Shown one piece after another: positions 6,569-28,777 of a stretch of 35,186 nucleotides of DNA; the first letter of the stretch is position 1; each line of letters starts with the position of its first letter. Position numbers and translations under genes: made by a program. This DNA is from a virus (lineage: Duplodnaviria; Caudoviricetes). The notes below the pieces were generated by a model, which was not told where the DNA came from, did no database searches, and saw only the letters and a list, made by a program, of their open reading frames with translations. The stretch lies in the IMG/VR virus record IMGVR_UViG_3300030397_000190, positions 1-35,186 of that record. One strand, 5' to 3'.

Positions 6569-7456
6569 CTATTCGATGAGAACGAGATGAATGGCCGTGT
6601 AGCCTTCACCGCCGCCGGAGACTCCCTGAACAGCGAGACTCGAACACTCGCCGTAGTTCGATGCCCAAACTGGCGTTGCCGGTGTGATCTTGAACAGGCC
6701 GCCTTTGTAGCCCTCGACTGTGGAGCCGATCATGCCTTGGAGTTGCTCGAGTAGTTTCTCAACCGTCGTGTCCTCGTGTTCGGCGTCCGAAGTGTATTCG
6801 ATAGCAAGTTGCTCGTAATAGCCCCGGTAACTGCCGAGTGCCGAGAACTTCCACATGGCCGCGCCGATACGAACCTTGTCCGTGGCCGGGCGTTGCTCGA
6901 GTTGCGCAATCAGTTCACGGAGCGTGAGTTGCCCCTTCGCCTGATTCTCGATTTTGGTCTGCGCCGTTACCCCGTCGAGTAGCGCGTGGATGGGTTCTGC
7001 CCTTGGGTCCGGTGGGTAGGCCTTGTCCATGTCGCCGTAACTGAGTTGCCGGAGCAACTCGTCCGTGTTGACGTTGATCGAGGTCGCGCCCTTATACATG
7101 AGTTCGGGCTCGCCGCTCGCAAGCAGAATATGCAAGGGCTTGTCAGCGCCCCAAAAGTACCCGGCTTCAAGGTGTGCCGAACGCCCGCATGGCATGAGCA
7201 AGACGCAGCAGTCGGCCCACTTCATCGCGTCATAGTCGTGCTTGAAGCCGCGAACGGACGCCGGGTGTTCGAGCATCGCGCGGAACTTTTCTGGCGTCCA
7301 GTTCTGCCAATCGTCGTCGATTTCACGCCAACTGAAACCGTCGTCGCCTTCTTCCGGGTTACGGAAGTCGTAGACTTCGTGCCCGTTCTCGCGTAGCAGC
7401 TTGACGATTTCAGGCTGACGCTCGTTGCGCCATGAACTTGCGAGGTAAATCTTCAT
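6569..7456 (-). CDS. Nucleoside 2-deoxyribosyltransferase-like domain fused to a phage hypothetical domain
   Basis: KIYLASSWRN, GHEVYDF, D..AM..AD..VL..PCGRSAHLEAG; second domain LTL.ELI..SYRGYY..GYKGG..TPVW; ACAGGAG RBS and ATGA overlap. Confidence 0.75.
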   Translation of the reverse strand: MKIYLASSWRNERQPEIVKLLRENGHEVYDFRNPEEGDDGFSWREIDDDWQNWTPEKFRAMLEHPASVRGFKHDYDAMKWADCCVLLMPCGRSAHLEAGYFWGADKPLHILLASGEPELMYKGATSINVNTDELLRQLSYGDMDKAYPPDPRAEPIHALLDGVTAQTKIENQAKGQLTLRELIAQLEQRPATDKVRIGAAMWKFSALGSYRGYYEQLAIEYTSDAEHEDTTVEKLLEQLQGMIGSTVEGYKGGLFKITPATPVWASNYGECSSLAVQGVSGGGEGYTAIHLVLIE

Positions 7457-8520: not shown

Positions 8521-9012
8521 TTAGTTCTTGTTCAGGTGGGCGATGCGGTTCACCGTCTCCTGACCACCCACTCTCTCTCTGACCTGATCACGCAAGTCAA
8601 GTAGTTCCTCGGTCGTGAGGTCTTTGAAGTCCTCGCGTGTGAATGTCGTTTTCGACTCGATGGGTCCGCCGTCCGGTCCTGAGTGTTCCAGAGCGACCCG
8701 GCGGCCAAACCTTGCCGGGTCCGTGCGCTCCAACCACCATGCGTGAGCCTGCCATGCCTGCGAGTTCCTGATCCTCGTGATGCTGTACATGGTCCTCTTT
8801 GCTAGAGCCTTTTCTATGTCGGCGCTAAATTCCGGGTCTTTCTGTCGCGCATCGCGAATTGTGCGTTCTGACAATCCGAGGTAGTTCGCTGCGACCGAAA
8901 AGAATCCGGCGACTTGCAAAGCGCCGATGAACTTCGCCTTGATTTCAGCCGTCATTACGTGGTTTGCGCCTTTTGGGCGTCCGCGCTTTCGCTTTGGTTT
9001 TTCTTTGCCCAT
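8521..9012 (-). CDS. terS: Terminase small subunit
   Basis: KRGRP N-terminus, HTH, DPEF, WQA.AW.LER..P..FG, EHSGPDGGPI, LTTEEL. Confidence 0.85.
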   Translation of the reverse strand: MGKEKPKRKRGRPKGANHVMTAEIKAKFIGALQVAGFFSVAANYLGLSERTIRDARQKDPEFSADIEKALAKRTMYSITRIRNSQAWQAHAWWLERTDPARFGRRVALEHSGPDGGPIESKTTFTREDFKDLTTEELLDLRDQVRERVGGQETVNRIAHLNKN

Positions 9013-9676
9013 GTTGCACTTTCTGCTTGTGCCAGAGTGGCACATAGCGTCGGCTTTCGGCCGTCAACAGGCGTAGCCGGTCGACGAATTTATTGCCGAG
9101 TTCGAGTATTCTTGGGGCGGTCACCACCAAACCCGTTCGGCAGTCTATCAGAGTGCCGTTTTCGTCGTCTAGCAAGAAGTCAGCGGGGATCATACCGGCG
9201 GCTGCGTCTTGGGCGTCCTTGTGGAGTCCGTGAGCGCCTTTTTGGAACACTTGCGCTACCTGTTCCGGTGTGAGTAGCCCGCGCTGTCGGGCGGTCAGTA
9301 GGTGCTTCTTTATGGTGCTGAGTGACGTGTTGTGTTTGGTGAGGAGTTGCAGGATGTCGAGCCCGGCTTTGACATCGGAGACGATTACAGAGGGGCCGCC
9401 GGTCTTGGCTGTCTTTCCCCGGTAGGTACTTGGGTCGATTACCCCTTGCTTGATGCCCTCGGCTATCCAGTGGTGGAACGTGGAGCGTTCGATCTCGACT
9501 TCTTTCGCGAGTTGCGAGACGCTTCCGCCGTACCCTTTCAGCGCCATCCCGACGTTGAGCAAGAAGCTGCGCCGTGTGTGCCTGTCGGTGAACTCGAGCC
9601 TAAGTCGTTTCGCTCGTTGGACTTTCGGCCATTTCCTGAGCCGTTTGATCGCTATTCTCGCTTGCTTCGTTGCCAT
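8945..9676 (-). CDS. HTH DNA-binding protein
   Basis: GSVSQLAKEVEIERSTFHHWI HTH; ACAGGAG RBS before MATKQ. Confidence 0.7.
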   Translation of the reverse strand: MATKQARIAIKRLRKWPKVQRAKRLRLEFTDRHTRRSFLLNVGMALKGYGGSVSQLAKEVEIERSTFHHWIAEGIKQGVIDPSTYRGKTAKTGGPSVIVSDVKAGLDILQLLTKHNTSLSTIKKHLLTARQRGLLTPEQVAQVFQKGAHGLHKDAQDAAAGMIPADFLLDDENGTLIDCRTGLVVTAPRILELGNKFVDRLRLLTAESRRYVPLWHKQKVQHGQRKTKAKARTPKRRKPRNDG

Positions 9677-10163
9677 CGTTCTCCTGTGCTTTCTTCTGCC
9701 GTACCGCCCGACTCGGGATTGCGATTCCCGCTTGCCGGGCCTTGGCTGCGATGTGCGCCACCGTCGACTTGCTGACGTTGTGCTGTCGCGCAACCACCCT
9801 GTAGGTGTCGTCCGTGTTTTGAAGCGCTGCAATGATCGAGAGCCAAACCGTGGTGAGCGTCTTGTTCTCGGCCTTCTTGAAGCCGAGGCGCTTCGCCGCC
9901 ATGTCGATTTGGTAGTGGGTGAGTTTGAACTTCTTGGCTGCCTCCTCGTAGCTGTGGCCCTTGTCGAGGAAGTCAACGATTCCCGCATCTCTTAAGTGCT
10001 GCCGTTCTCGGCCGATCACTAGGCCGTTTTCGGTAGCTGCTCGCCGGGCCTGCTCGTACCCGATGCCGAAATGCGAGGCGGCTTCTGTCACCGTCGCGCC
10101 GGTTTCACGCATCCAGTCGGCTATTGCTTTGCGCTTCTTTCTGGCTTCCTCGTGGGTGCCCAT
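9600..10163 (-). CDS. Protein with three tandem HTH motifs (candidate late regulator)
   Basis: TVTEAASHFGIG, SYEEAAKKFKLT, TYRVVARQHNVSKSTV. Confidence 0.75.
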   Translation of the reverse strand: MGTHEEARKKRKAIADWMRETGATVTEAASHFGIGYEQARRAATENGLVIGRERQHLRDAGIVDFLDKGHSYEEAAKKFKLTHYQIDMAAKRLGFKKAENKTLTTVWLSIIAALQNTDDTYRVVARQHNVSKSTVAHIAAKARQAGIAIPSRAVRQKKAQENDGNEASENSDQTAQEMAESPTSETT

Positions 10164-10801
10164 TACTCGTCCTCTGCCGGTGGCGAGAGTGCCGGAAGAT
10201 TGAGCCCCGCAGCGAGAACTTCAAGCAGCTTGTCGGGGTACATGACCGCGTGAATCCGGTCCTTGAGTTCCGTCACCTTGGCGACGAGCGAGCGTAGCTG
10301 CTCGTGTAACTCTGGCGTGTAGTCGAACATGATGCCAACGCCGTAGCCGCTACTGAATGCGCTTTTCTTTTCGCGACCAACCTTGGGCATGTGAGGCCGC
10401 CAGCCCTGCCCGGATATTTTGTTCAGACTGTCGGTCAACCGCCTCCAGCCGTGGATTGTGCCATCCTTGCGGGTGCATACCTCGATTACGCCATATGCGA
10501 TGAAGAAGCCCTCTCCGTTCTTAGCGGGTGAAACCGGGTCGTGGCCTCCTCGGTCGTCAAAACGGACGTATATGTGGCGCGTTACCGTGGTTTCGAGCGC
10601 CGCGACGATGCGCTTGTAAACAACCTGCTCAAGAGCGTCCAAGTCGCCGCCGTACTCGTCGATGCGATGCTCGTCATTGCAGATGCGGAACATGCGGTCG
10701 GCGTCTGCGGCCCGGTTCATCCGAACCTCGCACTTGATGGTCTGACCTCGGTAGGTGACCTCGTACCAGTCGATACGCTTGCCGGGTTTTCTCGTGCCCA
10801 T
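10163..10801 (-). CDS. Hypothetical protein
   Basis: TAATG coupling at both ends. Confidence 0.65.
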   Translation of the reverse strand: MGTRKPGKRIDWYEVTYRGQTIKCEVRMNRAADADRMFRICNDEHRIDEYGGDLDALEQVVYKRIVAALETTVTRHIYVRFDDRGGHDPVSPAKNGEGFFIAYGVIEVCTRKDGTIHGWRRLTDSLNKISGQGWRPHMPKVGREKKSAFSSGYGVGIMFDYTPELHEQLRSLVAKVTELKDRIHAVMYPDKLLEVLAAGLNLPALSPPAEDE

Positions 10802-11061
10802 TACTGTCTCCCTAAGATTTCCTCGGCTTCTTGCCGGAGTTCGTTGAACAGACCCCAAGCGTCCCCGGTGTCGGTGTAGTCCTCATCTTCACATTGCTTG
10901 TCGTACCCGGCGATGCGGTCGATCAGGGACTCCGCGAAGTTGTGAAGGCGCGCGATTCGCTTTGCTCGCTCGGCCTTCTCGCGTGAGGTTCTCCCTGCGG
11001 TCGTCGCGTACAGGAATCCATCGCGAGTGAAAACCTCGTTGTCTACGTGCTTGAGTGGCAT
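10801..11061 (-). CDS. Hypothetical protein
   Basis: ACCACAGGAG RBS. Confidence 0.65.
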   Translation of the reverse strand: MPLKHVDNEVFTRDGFLYATTAGRTSREKAERAKRIARLHNFAESLIDRIAGYDKQCEDEDYTDTGDAWGLFNELRQEAEEILGRQ

Positions 11062-11095
11062 GACTGTCTCCTGTGGTTATGGGCGTTCGCCCCCT

Positions 11096-11511: not shown

Positions 11512-11952
11512 CTACCCAAAAACAATGTCGCGCTCGATCTCGGCTGATGCCCGGAGCGCGGTGATCATGGATTCAAAGTCTTCGGTTTGTATGTCGTGCA
11601 GGTTTTCAAACACCATTGCTTTCAGCCCTTCGAGGCGGTCGGCAAGCGCTTGACTGTGCCTGTAGTCGATTCTCCCTCCACAATCCGAGTGCACAAACAG
11701 AACAGTCAGGATTTCCTCCGGTGTCTCGGCCCATTCGCCCCGGAAGTTCTCCGGTGTCCAGTCACCATCGACGCTCGGATGATATTCGCCCTTGCGGTAG
11801 TCGCTTGGACGAAGGGGCCAGCCAGCCGCGCGGGCGATGGCTACGCGCATATCGTTGAAGCTGCTGTACGGTGCGCTCCAAAAGCAATGCTCGGGCGTGC
11901 CGTGGCGGTCGTTCCTGTAGTCGTCGCTGTCAACGTAGGCGTGAAGTCCCAT
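11512..11952 (-). CDS. Phage hypothetical protein
   Basis: MGL...YSSF..R..., L..HSDC.G.I motif; ACCACAGGAG RBS. Confidence 0.7.
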   Translation of the reverse strand: MGLHAYVDSDDYRNDRHGTPEHCFWSAPYSSFNDMRVAIARAAGWPLRPSDYRKGEYHPSVDGDWTPENFRGEWAETPEEILTVLFVHSDCGGRIDYRHSQALADRLEGLKAMVFENLHDIQTEDFESMITALRASAEIERDIVFG

Positions 11953-11986
11953 CGCTTTCTCCTGTGGTTCGGCCGGTCGCTCCGGC

Positions 11987-12262
11987 TTAGAACTGAATGC
12001 GTCCGATGGCTACTGCCTCGTCGTACTCCTCGAGGATGTCCATGAGGTCCGAGGGGCTCGGCATACCGTTGGTCGCTTTGATCATGCTGACTGCGCGGTG
12101 GTTGATGTCGCTCGAGCCGATGCCGTGGCCGCTGCCTGCGTACTCGATGGAGAGTTGGCGGCTGGCTGCTTGGCGGACAAGTCGGAACAGGTACTTGTCG
12201 AGGTTGCGGTAGAACTCCCATGCTTCGTCGTTCGTCATGGGCTTGCGCGCGGTCGTGGTCAT
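11987..12262 (-). CDS. Hypothetical protein
   Basis: Dual-GGA leader and ACCACAGGAG RBS before MTTTAR. Confidence 0.65.
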   Translation of the reverse strand: MTTTARKPMTNDEAWEFYRNLDKYLFRLVRQAASRQLSIEYAGSGHGIGSSDINHRAVSMIKATNGMPSPSDLMDILEEYDEAVAIGRIQF

Positions 12263-12301
12263 CGCTTTCTCCTGTGGTTTGCGTGTCCGTCTGACACACA
12301 C

Positions 12302-12351: not shown

Positions 12352-12954
12352 CTAAAATAATCCGGTCTGTGGCGGTGGCTCGCCGCCCCCGTCCGGTAGG
12401 CTTTTGGGTTGCCCGTCGAGAGCTTTCCAGACTTTGTGAGCTTCTTCCCGGTACTCCCGGTGTGTTGAGGCGTCAGGCTCGAGGATTGCGCCCTCGTCAC
12501 AGAAGTGGGCGAATCCCCGGCCCATCTTCTTGCCCCGGTAGGTGTGCTTGTCGAGAGCCGCGTCCGGTATCGCCGGTTTGCGCCCGGCGTTGATGTCGTC
12601 CTGAACGCAAGCCTGCAACTCGTCGCCGATGCGCGTCTTTTCAGCCCGACACAATGCGACGATGGCGCACGTCAGAGGAAGTCGCCACGAATCGTCCTTC
12701 TTGCCGTAGAACGTGTCGGCGTCGTCGAGCCCGGCGCGAGCGAACAAGACTTCCTGCATGGCCGTGGGTCCGACATCTTCCCAACACATGACCCGGAGAC
12801 GCTTGATCAGCGCTTTCCACCATCCGGCGGATTCCATTTCGAACGCCCACCGGACAGCTTCACGCTCCCGGCCGCGTCTTACCTCTTTCTGGATTGCCGA
12901 CTGTACTTCCCATACGTTGTACCCCGAGATTGTCGGCCTTTGGTTGCTCGCCAT
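12352..12954 (-). CDS. RarA/MgsA-like helical domain lacking the AAA+ ATPase
   Basis: SAIQK.VRRG, KRL.V...EDVG, P..ALDKHT.RG..MGRG..HF; no Walker A; GGAG RBS before MASNQ. Confidence 0.75.
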   Translation of the reverse strand: MASNQRPTISGYNVWEVQSAIQKEVRRGREREAVRWAFEMESAGWWKALIKRLRVMCWEDVGPTAMQEVLFARAGLDDADTFYGKKDDSWRLPLTCAIVALCRAEKTRIGDELQACVQDDINAGRKPAIPDAALDKHTYRGKKMGRGFAHFCDEGAILEPDASTHREYREEAHKVWKALDGQPKSLPDGGGEPPPQTGLF

Positions 12955-13099
12955 GTTTGATTCTCCACCATTTGCCACACCGCTTACACTTCAACTCGAC
13001 ATCCGATGGCGCGTGTAACTGAACGAGCCATGCGCCACAATCACAGCGCACGACTCCCAAGTTTTCGACGTTGCGGATGTTCGGCTCGAAGTTCGGCAT
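12860..13099 (-). CDS. Mu Com-like zinc-ribbon protein
   Basis: VRCDCGAWL...VELKCKRCG matches the Com pattern; own promoter and dual-GGA leader. Confidence 0.65.
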   Translation of the reverse strand: MPNFEPNIRNVENLGVVRCDCGAWLVQLHAPSDVELKCKRCGKWWRIKHGEQPKADNLGVQRMGSTVGNPERGKTRPGA

Positions 13100-13131
13100 G
13101 ACTTCTCCTGAGTGCGTTGCGTCCGACACAC

Positions 13132-13160
13132 TCTCTACCTCGCGAGAACGCCTTTGTGAA
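13132..13160 (-). promoter_or_regulatory. Promoter candidate
   Basis: TTCACA-17 nt-TAGAGA. Confidence 0.45.
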
Positions 13161-13172
13161 GGGGTTTCTAGC

Positions 13173-13916
13173 CTATTTCGTCGAGGCGATGGCGGACCTT
13201 CGCTTGACGCGAATCGCCATGTTCAGCGAACCTCGCTCCTTTGCGGAGTCGACGCTGATGTACTGGCCCCACTTTTCCTTGAGGAGCTTCGTGTTCGCTT
13301 CGTTCTCGTCTCCGGTACGGACTCCTTGGTTGCCGCCCTTGCCGGTGAACACCGGGCCGAAGTCGAAATAGAAACGCCGGTCGCACCATGTAATCCGGTG
13401 CTTCATGAGGCTTTGCATGGTGAGGTCAATGTCCTCGCCTCGCTCGAGCCGGGTATCGAAACGAACATCTCGCCCAATGACGCCGAACGCTCCGGCCGAT
13501 GGAATCACGAGCCCGAAAGGGTCCGCTGCGTTGAGTTGCATCGGGTTGGCGTTCCGCTGCCAGCAGAATACCGCGAGCCCCAAGTCCTTTGCGACGTGGT
13601 AGCCGTTGAGGATGATTTGCAGGATGGCTCCGGCGTCGGTCGTCCTTCTGACCCGGCGGCCGATCAGACAGTTCACCGCGCGCAGATCATCGTCGATCAT
13701 GCACACCGGGCCTTTGACGTTTTGGAGTATCCAGCGCCGTATGTGTGCGATGTTGGGTAGCTTCGGATGCGGCAGAACCTTGACCTCGGCCTTCTCGTAT
13801 TCGGCGACTTCGCTTTCGTCGACGCACACGAGCGCCGTGGGCAACAGGGCCTTGAGCCGCTTCATGTTGTCGGCACGTGCCCGGCTTGGAACAACGATGG
13901 TGAGGTCACTTGTCAC
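13173..13916 (-). CDS. GT-A fold glycosyltransferase, TET-associated (TAGT)/GREB1-like
   Basis: IVVPSRARA, R.WIL, MIDDD, EDID..Q, GGN, L..KW motifs. Confidence 0.8.
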   Translation of the reverse strand: MTSDLTIVVPSRARADNMKRLKALLPTALVCVDESEVAEYEKAEVKVLPHPKLPNIAHIRRWILQNVKGPVCMIDDDLRAVNCLIGRRVRRTTDAGAILQIILNGYHVAKDLGLAVFCWQRNANPMQLNAADPFGLVIPSAGAFGVIGRDVRFDTRLERGEDIDLTMQSLMKHRITWCDRRFYFDFGPVFTGKGGNQGVRTGDENEANTKLLKEKWGQYISVDSAKERGSLNMAIRVKRRSAIASTK

Positions 13917-14604
13917 GGAGTAACTCGATCAGCTTCTTGGCGTCGACCGCCCGGCCGAGTCCGATCTTCTTCTTGCCAGCGATGGGCGAGGCGTTGACTT
14001 TCTCGATGCCGAGTTTCTCGCAGATGAACTCCCAATCCATTGTGTCCCGTGCGAGGATCACGACATAGTCGTAATGCTCGAACGGTGCGAGTTCCATCTC
14101 GGGCGGACCATCGCCGGGGGTGTCATCGGGGCCGAGCCCCTCAGACGCGCCGGGTTCGGTGGTGGTGGTCGGCTCCCCGGCGATGGCCTCTAAGCGCAGG
14201 CCATCGTACAGATCAGGAAGCGATGCCTCAACTTCTGCGGCGATGGCTTCTGCCTCGGCCGTGAAGTCGCCTTGTATGCCCGGGTTGTTTGCTGCGAGGT
14301 TGGCCGCCTTCTCGGTGTCCTCGTCCCAATCCACCACCCGTATTGCGAACGAAGCACCGTCGAGAATGAGCCGGGGCGGCTCCGTTTCGAACACCGCCCC
14401 TTGCTCTTTGAGAACGTCGACTCGTTGATGACCGGCGACAAGATGGCCCGTCCGCTTGTTCCAGACGATGCCCGACAAATCCCCAAACTCGCTCGTCGAC
14501 TTCTTGAGGCCATGCTTGGCTGCTATGTCGATGGTGCGCGGGTTGTAGGGTGCTGGCTTTAGATCGTTGAGGCTGGCCAGCTTCCGGGCCTTCTTTCTCG
14601 CCAT
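13906..14604 (-). CDS. ParB/Srx N-terminal domain protein
   Basis: LKPAPYNPR, S..EFG....IVWN..TG.LVAGHQR; C-terminal YDYVV domain; no ParB HTH. Confidence 0.85.
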   Translation of the reverse strand: MARKKARKLASLNDLKPAPYNPRTIDIAAKHGLKKSTSEFGDLSGIVWNKRTGHLVAGHQRVDVLKEQGAVFETEPPRLILDGASFAIRVVDWDEDTEKAANLAANNPGIQGDFTAEAEAIAAEVEASLPDLYDGLRLEAIAGEPTTTTEPGASEGLGPDDTPGDGPPEMELAPFEHYDYVVILARDTMDWEFICEKLGIEKVNASPIAGKKKIGLGRAVDAKKLIELLRDK

Positions 14605-14605
14605 G

Positions 14606-15004
14606 CTACTTTGCCTCGGACGTTTCCGGCTCGTTTTCGTTGAAAGCGAGTTCGCCCTGTGCGTCCTCGAACTCGACCGTGACCGCCTTGTCAATGGCCA
14701 TGTAGAGCGACGTGAACTCGTCGGCCTTGAGTCGCTTGGCCGGGACGAACTGGTACACGTGGCGGCCGTCCTCGTCTGCGGCTTCCGCGTAGACTGCGCG
14801 CTCGAGGAGCTTGCCGTCCATCTCCATGTTCACCGCGCCGGTCAGCTTGAGCGTTCCGAAACGCTCGCGCGCCTGCGACTGCTTGTACTGCTCGGACTTG
14901 AGATCGCTGTCAGCCTGCGACAGCTTGATCTTGTTGCCGCTCGCCTTGTCGGTCGATGCTTTGCCCTCGACCGCGTCGACGATCCAATCACCTTCGATCT
15001 TCAT
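14606..15004 (-). CDS. Hypothetical protein
   Basis: AGGAGG RBS before MKIEG; fills the gap. Confidence 0.7.
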   Translation of the reverse strand: MKIEGDWIVDAVEGKASTDKASGNKIKLSQADSDLKSEQYKQSQARERFGTLKLTGAVNMEMDGKLLERAVYAEAADEDGRHVYQFVPAKRLKADEFTSLYMAIDKAVTVEFEDAQGELAFNENEPETSEAK

Positions 15005-18423: not shown

Positions 18424-18458
18424 AAAGAGCCCCGGAGCTTGGCGTCTCCGGGGCCTTT
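18424..18458 (-). terminator. Intrinsic terminator/attenuator upstream of the replication operon
   Basis: GCCCCGGAG-ACGCCAAG-CTCCGGGGC followed by TCTTT. Confidence 0.65.
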
Positions 18459-24233: not shown

Positions 24234-24269
24234 GGCACATCACTCTCCTGTGGTGTAAGCAGCGTCCGA

Positions 24270-24748: not shown

Positions 24749-26020
24749 CTACTTAGCTAGCTCGCCTTCGCTGATGATCAGCGCCCCGTCCTCGTCGGTG
24801 CGGACCATCTCGATCCATAGTTGAAACTCGTTGCCGAGCGCCATCTCGCGCAAAGCAGCAATCCCTTCGTCGTCGATGTTGCTGCCCTCGCGGCAACCGA
24901 TCACCTTGATCTCCGGGTTGATTAGGCGGCCGACTTCGAAACCGAGCCGGAGCCTTTCTGCCTGCGACATCTCGTGGAAGGGGATGCCTTTGACCGTGAT
25001 TCCATCGTCCGTGATCTCGAGGCCCTCGACCGGGCACTTCGCTTTGGCGAGCCGTTCGGCACGTTGAGCCGGGTAGCCCTTGATCTTGTCGTTCAGGGCG
25101 TCGTACTCCTTGATGGCTTTCTCGGCTTCTTCGGTGAGTTCGTCCTTGCGCTGCTTCTGGCGGTACAGGTCGTTGAGGTTGTCGGCGTTCTCGATCTTCT
25201 CGAGGATGGGCGCGGGGTCCAAGCCTTCGGCCGCCTTTGCTGCTGCATCTTCGGCGTCGATCAGCCCCGCAACCTCCTTGACCTGTTCCTCGTGCTTCTT
25301 GCGAACGCCCTCGAGGTGGTCCTGTAGCTCCTTGATCTGGCGCTCGAGCGATGCGCCCTGTTCGTCGATACGTTCGGCCTTTGCCTCTGCCTCCTCGCGC
25401 AGTTCTTTTGCGCGAACAACCTCGTCCTGTTTCTCGCGGATGGCGTCGCGTTCCTCGTACAGCGCCTTCACGTCGATCAACTCGTCCGGCGCACCTTCGC
25501 AGTTGATCGCCTTGGCGGCATTGCTCGCCCGGTCCCGGTCCTTGCCGACAAGCAGGCGCTTTTCCCGGTCGGCTTTCTCCTGCGCGTCGAGGTCGCTGAA
25601 GTCGACGCCAAGCGCCTTCTGTAGTTCGGCCGCCTGATCATTCGGCTTGAGCGCCTCGAACTTTGTCGGGTCGATGGTCTGCGCGTTGAACAAGCCGTTC
25701 AGGATGTCCTGACCCTTCTTGATCGCCTTCTTGTCGCCTTTCGGCCGGACCTTCAACGTCTGCTTGCGCTTGCCGTCAATCGTCCGGGTGACGATGTACT
25801 CGCCAAGGTCGAAGCCGATCTCTGCCTTTTCTGCGCCCTCGCGGACTGGCTTCTCGCCGATTGAGTTGCCACCGCGCAAGCCTGCCTCGATGGCGTCGAG
25901 GACACTGGACTTGCCGGAGCCGTTCTTGCCCGTGAGGACTACGAGCCCGGTGTTCAGCCCGTAGGCCTTGAAGTCTTTGATGCCCTTGAAGTCTTTGATC
26001 TCGATTGCGTGGATGTGCAT
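24749..26020 (-). CDS. SMC/Rad50-like coiled-coil ATPase (AAA_23-type)
   Basis: I.DFKGI, G.NGSGKSS, long coiled coil, degenerate MSQAE signature; ACCACAGGAG RBS. Confidence 0.85.
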   Translation of the reverse strand: MHIHAIEIKDFKGIKDFKAYGLNTGLVVLTGKNGSGKSSVLDAIEAGLRGGNSIGEKPVREGAEKAEIGFDLGEYIVTRTIDGKRKQTLKVRPKGDKKAIKKGQDILNGLFNAQTIDPTKFEALKPNDQAAELQKALGVDFSDLDAQEKADREKRLLVGKDRDRASNAAKAINCEGAPDELIDVKALYEERDAIREKQDEVVRAKELREEAEAKAERIDEQGASLERQIKELQDHLEGVRKKHEEQVKEVAGLIDAEDAAAKAAEGLDPAPILEKIENADNLNDLYRQKQRKDELTEEAEKAIKEYDALNDKIKGYPAQRAERLAKAKCPVEGLEITDDGITVKGIPFHEMSQAERLRLGFEVGRLINPEIKVIGCREGSNIDDEGIAALREMALGNEFQLWIEMVRTDEDGALIISEGELAK

Positions 26021-26149
26021 GGGTTCTCCTGTGGTTTGACTGATCTCCAAAAAACTGCCCGTTTTACATGGGTGGCGTTACGTGTGTTGCGCTTGGATGC
26101 TGTTCGCGGGTGTTTAGACGTTTCTGCCCGTCGATGCGTTAGAACGCAA

Positions 26150-26350
26150 TTATGGGCAAATTACGAATAGACACTCCTCGGCACCGTGAACAGCGGGTTT
26201 GCCGCAAACTTCGCATGTGTAGTTGCGGGCGTCCGGCTCGATGCCGGAGTGTTCTGCCCCGCATTCGAGGCAAAAGCCCGTGTTGTTGTCGTTCTCAACC
26301 GCGCCCATGACGCGCTCGAGCGTCGGGTAGGATTGCGCGTGTGTCGTCAT
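26150..26350 (-). CDS. Zinc-ribbon protein
   Basis: GFCLECG...EPDA..Y.CE.CG..V.GAE. Confidence 0.75.
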   Translation of the reverse strand: MTTHAQSYPTLERVMGAVENDNNTGFCLECGAEHSGIEPDARNYTCEVCGKPAVHGAEECLFVICP

Positions 26351-26386
26351 AACTGTCTCCTGTGGTTTGCGTTGCGTCCGTTCGGG

Positions 26387-26602
26387 CTAGACGCCCGTGA
26401 TCTTGCACTTTTCCAAGTGCGGGGCGTGTTCGTCGCGCCAGTCTTGGACTGCGCTCATGAGTTCGGTGTAGGCGTTGTCGTCACCCATCGGGCCACGAAC
26501 CTTACTGACCGTGCAACGGTCGTCGCCTTCGCTGATATTCACGCAGAACTTGAGCCCGTTTGGGCTTTCGATCATCACGTCCCTGTGGTACTTGACCGAC
26601 AT
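26387..26602 (-). CDS. Hypothetical protein
   Basis: ACCACAGGAG RBS. Confidence 0.6.
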   Translation of the reverse strand: MSVKYHRDVMIESPNGLKFCVNISEGDDRCTVSKVRGPMGDDNAYTELMSAVQDWRDEHAPHLEKCKITGV

Positions 26603-26631
26603 AGCTTTCTCCTGTGGTTGGTCCTACTCAA

Positions 26632-26660
26632 TCACTCTCACGCCCGGCGGGACGTGTCAA
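26632..26660 (-). promoter_or_regulatory. Promoter candidate
   Basis: Perfect TTGACA; 17 nt ending TGA; non-canonical GAGTGA. Confidence 0.45.
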
Positions 26661-26669
26661 ACCTAAATG

Positions 26670-26743
26670 CCCGTGGTGGTGAGCCGGGCAGGAAGCCAAA
26701 CCCGCCCGGCTCTGGACCCCGGGCATCCGGGGCACCACAGGAA
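26670..26743 (-). ncRNA. Candidate three-way-junction RNA containing anti-RBS sequence
   Basis: Outer stem CCTGTGGTG/CACCACGGG; hairpins CCCCGG/CCGGGG and GAGCCGGGCGGG/CCTGCCCGGCTC; G-U pairs favour the minus strand. Confidence 0.55.
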
Positions 26744-27859
26744 CTATGCCATTGCGCCGGTCAGGATTTCACCGGCCTTTTGCTGGATGTCGATGCGGTC
26801 CCGGCCGTGGCTGAGTGTGTTGGCGTAGGCCGTCAAGCCGTTCGTGACGCTCCACACGCTCAAGTCCTCGCCGCCTAGCTGCGTCTGCGCGAGTTCGACC
26901 GAAGCCTTGGCCACTTTCTTCGTGACGCCCATTTTGTTCAGGCGTTTTTCAGCGCCCTCGACGTTCGGCGCGAACTCGACATCGGCCGCTTTGTGCAGGA
27001 AGTCAAACTCCTCGTCGGTGATGGTTGTACCCATCTCGGCGACTTGCTTCTTGAACTCCCCGAAGCCGTCGACAATGCCCTGTCGGTGGACGACTTGGTA
27101 GATCATCTGTTCCTGCATCCCCCAAATCAGGAGGTTGGCGCAAATGTCGCGAAACAAGAAGCTCGTCCAGCCGAACATGCGGTCGCCTGTCTCGCTGTTC
27201 CAGACAGCGAGCCCCCGGCGCAGGCCGCCAAGGTCATCGGACTGGCCGCCGTCGCCGTCCTTCATGAAGAACATGAAGCTCGAGCGGTCATCACGCACGA
27301 GGCACTTCGGCTTACCTTCCTCGGGGCCGCTGTAGCGGAAGGTCGGAGAGGCCGGAGTCCAGCCGGAGCCCAAGAGCCACCGGTCGACTTCGCCGCAAAC
27401 ATCGTCGTCCCACAGGCGCTTGTACTGTGAGCCCGTGAATGCGCGCACCTTCTGTACGCCGTCGACGTTCTCAAGGAGAATCTGACCCACGCGGCTGTCC
27501 TCGCGCGGCATGAGTTCGTTGATGACCCGGCTGCGCGTCTCCGGCTTGAGGCGCTCGATCATGCCCAAGTTGACGCCCGCCATGCGGACAATCTGCTTGT
27601 AGCTGTAGTTGGTGAGTTCGCCCTTGATCTCGGTTTCACCGTCAAGGACCGTGATCGTCTCCGGCTTCTGCATCTCGCCGGGAAGCACCGCCACGTGCTT
27701 GAGGTCGACGACATGCTCGGTGCAACGAGCCCGCTGATCCTTGGCGTCCTGCCACAACTCCTGAAACGAGTCGTACTTGCTTTCTTCTGGCGCGTTGAAC
27801 ACTTCTTTGTTTGCGAGGTTGTTGTAAGTCTGCTCGCCCTTTTCACTCGTTACCTGCAT
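26744..27859 (-). CDS. DUF932/DUF945-like protein
   Basis: RA..G..Y.R.WD, G..V.NSE.G, F.FR.IC.N, H.., W...NG.T..A. Confidence 0.7.
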   Translation of the reverse strand: MQVTSEKGEQTYNNLANKEVFNAPEESKYDSFQELWQDAKDQRARCTEHVVDLKHVAVLPGEMQKPETITVLDGETEIKGELTNYSYKQIVRMAGVNLGMIERLKPETRSRVINELMPREDSRVGQILLENVDGVQKVRAFTGSQYKRLWDDDVCGEVDRWLLGSGWTPASPTFRYSGPEEGKPKCLVRDDRSSFMFFMKDGDGGQSDDLGGLRRGLAVWNSETGDRMFGWTSFLFRDICANLLIWGMQEQMIYQVVHRQGIVDGFGEFKKQVAEMGTTITDEEFDFLHKAADVEFAPNVEGAEKRLNKMGVTKKVAKASVELAQTQLGGEDLSVWSVTNGLTAYANTLSHGRDRIDIQQKAGEILTGAMA

Positions 27860-27895
27860 TGCATTCTCCTGTGGTTATGGGCTGTGTGCCCGTGA

Positions 27896-28126
27896 TTAGA
27901 GTTCGTCCGGCCCCAACACCGCCACCCGGAACTCGACGCCGGGGTGGTCACGCTCGAGTTCTTGGACAAGCGCGTCCGCCTCGTCCTCGGTGAGTAGTTC
28001 ACCGCTGACTACTTTGCGGGCACCGCGCGCCGGAACCTCGAGAACCTCGAACCGGCGCTCCGGCAGTTCGATGTATTCGGGTCCGCGTGTTTTCCAAGCG
28101 TCGTAACCGGGAAGTGAGTGAGACAT
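27896..28126 (-). CDS. Hypothetical protein (first early gene)
   Basis: LPGYDAWKT motif; dual-GGA leader. Confidence 0.65.
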   Translation of the reverse strand: MSHSLPGYDAWKTRGPEYIELPERRFEVLEVPARGARKVVSGELLTEDEADALVQELERDHPGVEFRVAVLGPDEL

Positions 28127-28164
28127 GGCTTTGCTCCTGTGGTCGTGTTGCGTCCGTTGCTCAG

Positions 28165-28193
28165 ATTCTCAGGCCCATCGCGAAAGCAGTCGA
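28165..28193 (-). promoter_or_regulatory. Early promoter candidate
   Basis: TCGACT-17 nt-GAGAAT, downstream of the terminator. Confidence 0.45.
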
Positions 28194-28229
28194 GCCAATT
28201 CGGAAATTCCCGAATCTGTGAATTTGCAG

Positions 28230-28261
28230 AAACGCAAACGAGCCGCCCGAAGGCAGCCCGT
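28230..28261 (-). terminator. Intrinsic terminator ending the late/lysis operon
   Basis: ACGGGCTGCC-TTCG-GGCGGCTCGT (C-UUCG-G loop) then TTGCGTTT. Confidence 0.7.
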
Positions 28262-28266
28262 GTTTT

Positions 28267-28390
28267 GCATATCCGCTTTACTGCCGGGGAGTCCTGTGCG
28301 CGGTCAGGACTCCCCCATATCCGTTGGGCCGCTTCTCGGCCGTGGCTACTACGTTCCGCGCACGCCTCGCTTCTCGTCGATGGGTTATGC
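28267..28390 (-). ncRNA. Candidate multi-stem pseudoknotted RNA
   Basis: 11-bp hairpin whose loop CCGCGCA is complementary to upstream TGCGCGG; GCATA/TATGC closure; internal direct repeats. Confidence 0.55.
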
Positions 28391-28393
28391 CGT

Positions 28394-28777
28394 CTAACTG
28401 GCGAGGTCTAGCACTCGCCCGAATATGCTGCTGATGATGTTCCCGGCGTGTGTTGCCGATGCCGCTGCCACGTCCCGCATGGCACGCATCACTTCGATTG
28501 CGACGACTGCCTTCAAGTCCTGCAACGTCGATTCGACGATTGCGGCTTCTCGTCCGACGTGCTGGCCCATGCGGCGCTTGATTTCAATTTTGGCGAGATC
28601 GACCATCGCGGCCTGCGCGAGTTTGCGCTTCTCGCCGGTCAAGTCCTTGATGGTGCCCTTGCCGATTTCCTCGACTTTGGCCCACCAAGCCTTGCCGATC
28701 TCGAGCGACTCCTCCTTGAGTTCGTCAAGGAAGTGTTCGGCCTTGTTCTTCTTCGGGGCTTTCTTTTCGTCCGACAT
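28394..28777 (-). CDS. Helical hypothetical protein in the lysis-type block
   Basis: Starts 2 nt after the lipoprotein stop; amphipathic C-terminus. Confidence 0.65.
   Translation of the reverse strand: MSDEKKAPKKNKAEHFLDELKEESLEIGKAWWAKVEEIGKGTIKDLTGEKRKLAQAAMVDLAKIEIKRRMGQHVGREAAIVESTLQDLKAVVAIEVMRAMRDVAAASATHAGNIISSIFGRVLDLAS

Follow-up and report, generated by a model that had tools for sequence, protein, structure and literature searches.

A conserved minus-strand RNA junction with an anti-RBS arm behind a phage gene, and its possible role as a conditional antisense silencer

Phage antisense RNAs and repeated leader tags

The C4 RNA of phages P1 and P7 folds into three stems over ~77 nt. 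Its antisense segments are exposed in two loops, a' and b', RNase P cleaves it at the GGW start of P1, and it targets an antirepressor message (PMC5320573, PMC12197685). The element analyzed here, at 26670..26743 on the minus strand of the window (the whole 35,186-nt stretch of viral DNA that was analyzed), has a predicted 74-nt three-stem fold that agrees with C4 in size and number of stems; like C4 it is phage-encoded, ~75 nt long, contained in a longer transcript and complementary to a ribosome-binding region. It differs from C4 in that its main antisense segment, a 9-nt anti-tag, lies in the closing stem P1 rather than in loops a'/b', with a loop that matches the start region by 5-6 nt, and in that its potential targets are a tag carried by 9-15 genes rather than an antirepressor message. 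P1 of the element begins CCU, the GGW motif of C4 processing is absent, and no antirepressor family was found among 50 ORFs (Pfam) or 26 ORFs (PHROGs) of this partial genome. The initial annotation had placed the element beside C4 and the CI RNA of P4, another of the closest comparison systems. That assignment was not borne out, given the position of the antisense segment and an Rfam search that returned no match in the window at E ≤ 5 or, at E ≤ 1, in L007, the contig of a diverged relative.

A second precedent comes from the type I toxin mRNAs aapA and hok, for which long-distance pairing of a 3' anti-SD and alternative folds have been described (PMC6733600). The element likewise places an anti-SD behind a coding sequence and has predicted alternative folds, but here the distance exceeds 1 kb, the ORF encodes a 371-aa protein rather than a small toxin, there is no evident antitoxin RNA, and the SD tag is common to many genes.

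Repeated leader tags have been described as start-associated sequences (SAS) and ESAS in mycobacteriophages of cluster K and Microbacterium phages of cluster EF (PMC3203893, PMC7302621, PMC11373665, PMC12699233). Pope et al. reported a single reverse SAS per K1 phage, left its meaning open and did not decide whether RNA or protein binds SAS (PMC3203893); papers from 2024 and 2025 still give the role as unknown. On copy number, orientation, spacing and conservation the tag in the window fits the SAS description: it is asymmetric, is present in many copies in one orientation 3-9 nt before non-structural starts, is conserved beyond the SD, often has a promoter-like motif upstream and has a lone reverse copy as in K1 phages. 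Unlike the cluster K SAS, it departs from the consensus GGGATAGGAGCCC, with which it has only the AGGAG core in common, and whereas in K1 phages the reverse copy is displayed by the loop of a predicted hairpin, that of the window is predicted to be masked in a junction in an early-gene 3' UTR.

In four of the 12 cluster K phages examined, folding placed the reverse SAS in a hairpin loop, at the tip of a long predicted stem: Anaya (L133:31829-31928), Adephagia (L134:30641-30740), Validus (L136:330-429) and Mdavu (L137:343-442). In the Anaya-like loop the first seven positions of the reverse SAS are predicted to be unpaired with probabilities of 0.89-1.0. The hairpin sits in a conserved, structured intergenic region of ~300 nt for which Rfam gave no match, and in Adephagia late transcription reportedly starts in the gap that holds the reverse SAS (PMC11373665, section 19). 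The exact reverse SAS is absent in the other 8/12: four have a C/U-rich loop with 2-3 mismatches to it, and in the two of these that were checked 14 and 15 SAS cores are unchanged; in four further phages no reverse match was present in the stretches examined. AnnaSerena has 10 forward and 0 reverse SAS. The SAS parallel is therefore real for Anaya-like phages only. No paper on an RNA antisense to SAS-type tags was found in a search of literature containing few subscription papers. The element is a concrete candidate for a phage RNA that reads an RBS tag and brings its own mask and a plausible trigger, and the finding in Anaya, Adephagia, Validus and Mdavu brings the SAS question into cultured phages with a laboratory host.

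The shared tag, the junction and its conservation

The window is a partial tailed-phage genome in which every called gene lies on the minus strand; its predicted products include a terminase, a DUF4055 (portal-like) protein, DnaB, RusA, RecT, YqaJ and an AAA ATPase (Pfam, PHROGs). In both phages the element forms the 3' UTR of a DUF932-like gene (26744..27859, minus strand in the window; 371 aa) that is itself tagged. The original label "DUF932" holds in part: annotated DUF932 proteins are distant homologues (~24% identity), but the protein's own Pfam score (E 0.069) is below the cut-off, so that only "DUF932-like" is warranted. Planctomycetota are the source of its best named homologues (~40% identity), and from these sequences a Planctomycetota host is only a guess.

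The tag ACCACAGGA occurs in 10 copies on the coding strand versus 0.32 expected (Markov-3, window) and in one reversed copy versus 0.08 expected, and this reversed copy is the 5' arm of the element. Ahead of start codons, at a fixed RBS distance, stand nine exact copies, or 15 when one mismatch is accepted (≥ 8/9 matches). On the minus strand the tag is the RBS of the gene that opens the predicted early transcript (28134..28143), and copies precede the DUF932-like gene (27866..27875; perfect in both phages), the next gene, 26387-26602 (26609..26618), the gene at 26150-26350 (26357..26366, with CGGACGC ahead), the AAA ATPase gene (26026..26035), the YqaJ-like gene (24245..24254) and the genes at 11987-12262 (12269..12278), 11512-11952 (11959..11968) and 10801-11061 (11068..11077). 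These copies confirm the initial observation that the arm is antisense to the RBS of about nine genes, including that of its downstream neighbor.

Fold A, which is predicted by folding and by a covariance-model homologue, starts 2 nt behind the stop codon TAG (26746-26744) of the DUF932-like gene, and all of its parts lie on the minus strand. P1 (9 bp) joins 26741-26733 to the 3' strand CACCACGGG at 26678-26670 and encloses P2 (6 bp, 26732-26717) and P3 (12 bp, 26712-26681); the P3 loop UUUGGCUU (26700-26693) has a UGGCU core that is common to both phages and may act as a toehold. The 5' arm (26733..26743), the exact complement of ACCACAGGA and identical in L007, is held in P1. The coordinates, the sequence and the position right behind the stop are as initially annotated, and the predicted fold agrees that the arm is masked by the 3' strand around a 6-bp and a 12-bp hairpin. 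Two G-U pairs had been taken to favor the minus strand, and indeed the minus-strand fold (-53.5 kcal/mol, z -6.12; 0/200 shuffles as stable) surpasses that of the plus strand (-46.4 kcal/mol, z -3.82); among 3512 minus-strand segments of 74 nt, the most stable overlaps the element. Both G-U pairs were confirmed. P1 contains a U-G wobble that leaves the arm matching the tag better than its own P1 partner, a strand that looks like a decayed tag. A plus-strand ORF using the reverse tag as its RBS was rejected, its ATG at 26746 being only 3 nt from AGGA and its length 22 codons.

The searches yielded a single relative, contig L007; it shares an exact overlap of at least 22 bases with the end of viral contig G001. 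Its element homologue (L007:1398-1468, covariance-model E 1.2e-6) is preceded by the same gene, with P1 starting 4 nt past the stop codon, and both phages have the order lysis-region genes, promoter-like motif, small gene, DUF932-like gene, element; the sequence downstream of the element is not conserved and the neighbor there is a different one. The relative carries the same tag, in the L007 leader and in five exact G001 copies, all on the coding strand. The two DUF932-like proteins are 66% identical and their 4-fold sites are identical at 62/118 (53%), whereas P1, together with the six P2 pairs common to both phages, matches at 30/30 bases, the U-G wobble included, which argues for a constraint on sequence beyond pairing alone. 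Outside these stems, the two junctions, the P2 loop and the flanking sequence have diverged. P3 in L007 keeps ~10 pairs, with a shift, and retains UGGCU in its loop, the sole loop motif common to the two phages. Covariation, which the initial annotation had suggested looking for in related phages, does not appear between these two sequences: no compensatory change separates them in P1 or P2, and tag and anti-tag are both unchanged. Pair counts from an alignment that contained three non-homologous rows were set aside. On the evidence of sequence comparison, the element is a real minus-strand RNA structure under sequence-level selection, its anti-RBS arm included, and the conservation of element and tag in a diverged relative upholds that part of the original proposal. 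Three DNA contig sets from one study, possibly the window's own source, contain 0 variants in 26000-28500.

No third copy of the element was recovered with DUF932-like protein queries over viral contigs, genome contigs, 57/64 parts of the metagenome contigs and 401 Planctomycetota genomes. RecT and terminase queries returned only G001 as a close relative, DNA-pattern searches gave no homologue except G001 and blastn against cultured phages gave only chance-level matches. Covariance model R1, run over 0.49, 0.38 and 1.10 Mb, was convincing only for L007; the next best matches, at E ~0.01, include the opposite strand of the window itself. Ten DNA-pattern loci were rejected as homologues, none having blastn similarity to the window; four of them, L008, L013, L015 and L017, were checked and lie in an unrelated context (ORF list or Rfam). 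Three of these contigs, all proviral, share a conserved multibranch fold of ~78 nt beside tRNA genes (L008:3001-3079, L013:3001-3077, L015:3001-3077), which is unrelated to the window and had no match in Rfam. Distant DUF932-like genes often have a long hairpin or multi-stem fold behind them, as in L003 (3374-3470), L041-L043, L005/L006, L049 and L057; that of L003 is a predicted multibranch structure with no evident anti-tag.

Predicted masking of the arm, and its possible release and target pairing

In fold A, 9/11 arm bases are paired with P about 1.0, leaving almost no toehold, and fold A dominates every window transcript that ends within ~40 nt of P1. In these models, an antisense role is hindered above all by this pairing of the arm. 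An alternative fold B (26667..26726, minus strand) pairs the P2 loop and P2 3' strand (26726-26720) with 26673-26667 and frees the arm; without a target it is predicted to lie 4.9 kcal/mol above fold A. In both phages the P2 loop complements the bases just past P1, although the sequences differ (AUGC/GCAU in the window, GUCC/GGAC in the relative), and the gap to the arm-free form falls from ~12 to 4.9 kcal/mol with a 10-nt tail and to 4.4 kcal/mol with a 15-nt tail. Random tails equal fold B in 4-6% of the window trials and, for the relative, in 38-62% at 5-10 nt and 4.8% at 15 nt (four lengths tried), so that the predicted effect of the tail offers weak support for fold B. For the relative, folding further predicts that a nearby sequence other than an RBS takes up the freed arm again.

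Cofolding of the element with its tail gave a mean net energy of -9.7 kcal/mol on 15 tagged leaders versus -4.3 kcal/mol on 20 other starts; for the core without a tail, mean net binding was -4.3 and -1.2 kcal/mol, respectively. The initial suggestion of a trans-acting, multi-target anti-RBS RNA is allowed thermodynamically by these models. UGGCU complements AGYY-A(UG) ahead of tagged starts, and AGYY-AUG precedes 10/24 tagged versus 5/76 other starts (Fisher p 1.6e-4), a post hoc comparison that uses script-called starts.

Several of these observations suggest, as a tentative reading that we would put a little short of an even bet, that the 3' UTR element is a conditional antisense silencer that would keep the tagged early messages, as a group, from being translated. 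The junction would fold co-transcriptionally and keep the arm inert. With P1 starting 2-4 nt past the stop codon, it lies within reach of a terminating ribosome, which could melt the arm, whereupon the P2 loop would catch the freed P1 3' strand to give fold B. The freed arm would then pair over ACCACAGGAG on its own or other messages, the UGGCU loop perhaps seeding the contact before the AUG, and the outcome would be a negative feedback that damps the early genes after the first early operon has been translated. We favor this reading because a single reverse tag faces 10 forward copies where 0.08 reverse copies are expected per genome, because the same element, position and tag recur in the relative with P1 and P2 invariant, because tagged leaders bind better in cofolding and are enriched (post hoc) for AGYY-AUG, because five Planctomycetota genomes contain the tag no more often than a control pattern (8 matches versus 10) and because of the partial parallel in Anaya-like phages. 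It is weakened by the comparison comprising only two sequences, by the arm being paired in fold A, by a fold B close to that of random tails and by the recapture of the arm in the relative, as well as by the hairpins without an anti-tag behind many distant DUF932-like genes and by other tagged phages without an exact reverse copy. Small-RNA boundaries are likewise missing, neither an own promoter nor a U-tailed terminator having been found that would define a small RNA from the element. If the reading is true, a compact RNA that silences any gene with a 10-nt tag would be a useful synthetic part. A more far-reaching version, which we hold doubtful, is a translation-triggered master antisense switch in which a bistable 3' mRNA end silences the whole tagged regulon by means of two guides, the arm for the SD tag and the loop for the bases preceding the AUG, as one form of a general timing system of tag and mirror RNA that would also explain the SAS of K1 phages.

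Alternative readings and neighboring sequences

The dominance of fold A in transcripts ending within ~40 nt of P1 would also be expected if the element were a stabilizer or processor of the 3' end of the DUF932-like message, with the anti-tag a relic of an inverted leader duplication locked in P1, a reading that we consider rather unlikely. It would accommodate the resemblance of the P1 3' strand to a decayed tag, the other strong intergenic hairpins in the window and the strong hairpin seen by eye soon after the stop at no fewer than 8 of the 31 other distinct DUF932-like loci for which downstream sequence is available. It leaves unexplained the invariance of P1 and P2 beside a shifted P3, and the retention in both phages of a wobble through which the arm fits the tag better than the strand opposite it. 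The missing U-tail in both phages also speaks against it. As to the idea, raised at the outset, that the structure is just a terminator, an intrinsic-terminator scan did not list the element, and no U run follows the hairpin in the window or L007.

Pairing of the arm within its own transcript, with the tags of the first early operon 1.1-1.4 kb upstream or with the next RBS on read-through, is also conceivable but unlikely. The arm pairs with 26609-26618 with P 0.999 in a fold of 26600-26750 and with the tag at 28134-28143 in a fold of 1510 nt, the element accompanies the DUF932-like gene, which has a perfect tag of its own in the window and the relative alike, and anti-SD pairing in type I toxin mRNAs sets a precedent (PMC6733600). 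Against it, the partner shifts with the length folded (26581-26588 or 28134-28143), as a repeated motif predicts. Kilobase-range folds of translated RNA are moreover unreliable. For the next gene, pairing with its RBS is predicted on read-through RNA as the initial annotation had envisaged, but a promoter-like motif (TTGACA, 17 nt, GAGTGA; 26632..26660, minus strand) lies between and would provide that gene with an element-free transcript of its own, and the downstream neighbor differs in the relative. A switch acting on the next gene alone is therefore unlikely.

This motif (a TTGACA-type and a GAGWGW-type box separated by 17 nt) was observed on the minus strand of the window at 28193, 26660, 12330 and 8600 and in five copies in the relative (G001 193, 29230, 29940, 32231 and 32959), mostly before tagged genes and with 0 copies on the non-coding strand. 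The pattern was derived from six sites, which leaves three independent ones, two of them before tagged leaders, and a canonical sigma-70 scan did not detect the copy at 26632..26660. By analogy, the motif may be functionally like ESAS. A second leader motif, CGGACGC, has 22 coding-strand copies versus 8.7 expected (for example at 28156, 26380, 24268, 23071 and 18419) and stands 12-25 nt ahead of the GGA of the tag in seven leaders per phage; a copy was also noted directly behind the element in L007.

GGA is the recognition motif of CsrA-type proteins, and the tag and CGGACGC, which together give two GGA per leader, might instead be protein sites, with the junction a protein-recognized structure or an inverted DNA site. 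The excess and spacing of CGGACGC would agree with this, as would the invariance of P2, for which antisense pairing gives no reason. We nevertheless regard it as quite improbable, as the tags stand at a fixed RBS distance from starts, the minus-strand fold with its G-U pairs is favored, and the DUF932-like protein, as modelled with AlphaFold (pLDDT 88), matched no solved structure in Foldseek at E ≤ 0.001, so that no RNA-binding fold can be assigned to it. Finally, a loop kiss with the terminator region at 18438-18445, as initially proposed, was rejected: its -7.5 kcal/mol is possible but no better than that of the loop on the tagged start context (-7.8 kcal/mol), GCCAA occurs 66 times on the coding strand and the partner region is absent from G001.

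The initial remark that the phage has no visible repressor is not established, the window being partial and encoding an HTH protein at 9600-10163. This gene and the adjacent 8945-9676 (both minus strand) encode HTH-like proteins, the second weakly so, ahead of the small terminase gene; the pair is kept in G001 (41% and 38%), and they are candidate late regulators. A cluster of strong hairpins at 28203-28346 (minus strand) separates the lysis-region genes from the first of the early promoter-like motifs; it includes an 11-bp stem in which CAGGA pairs with UCCUG, as well as a hairpin of terminator-like form at 28238-28261, and has no obvious conservation in G001. ParB-like, TET-associated glycosyltransferase-like and MgsA-C-like genes at 12352-14694 (minus strand), kept in G001, and a nucleoside deoxyribosyltransferase-like gene at 6569-7456 (minus strand) possibly form a DNA-modification module.
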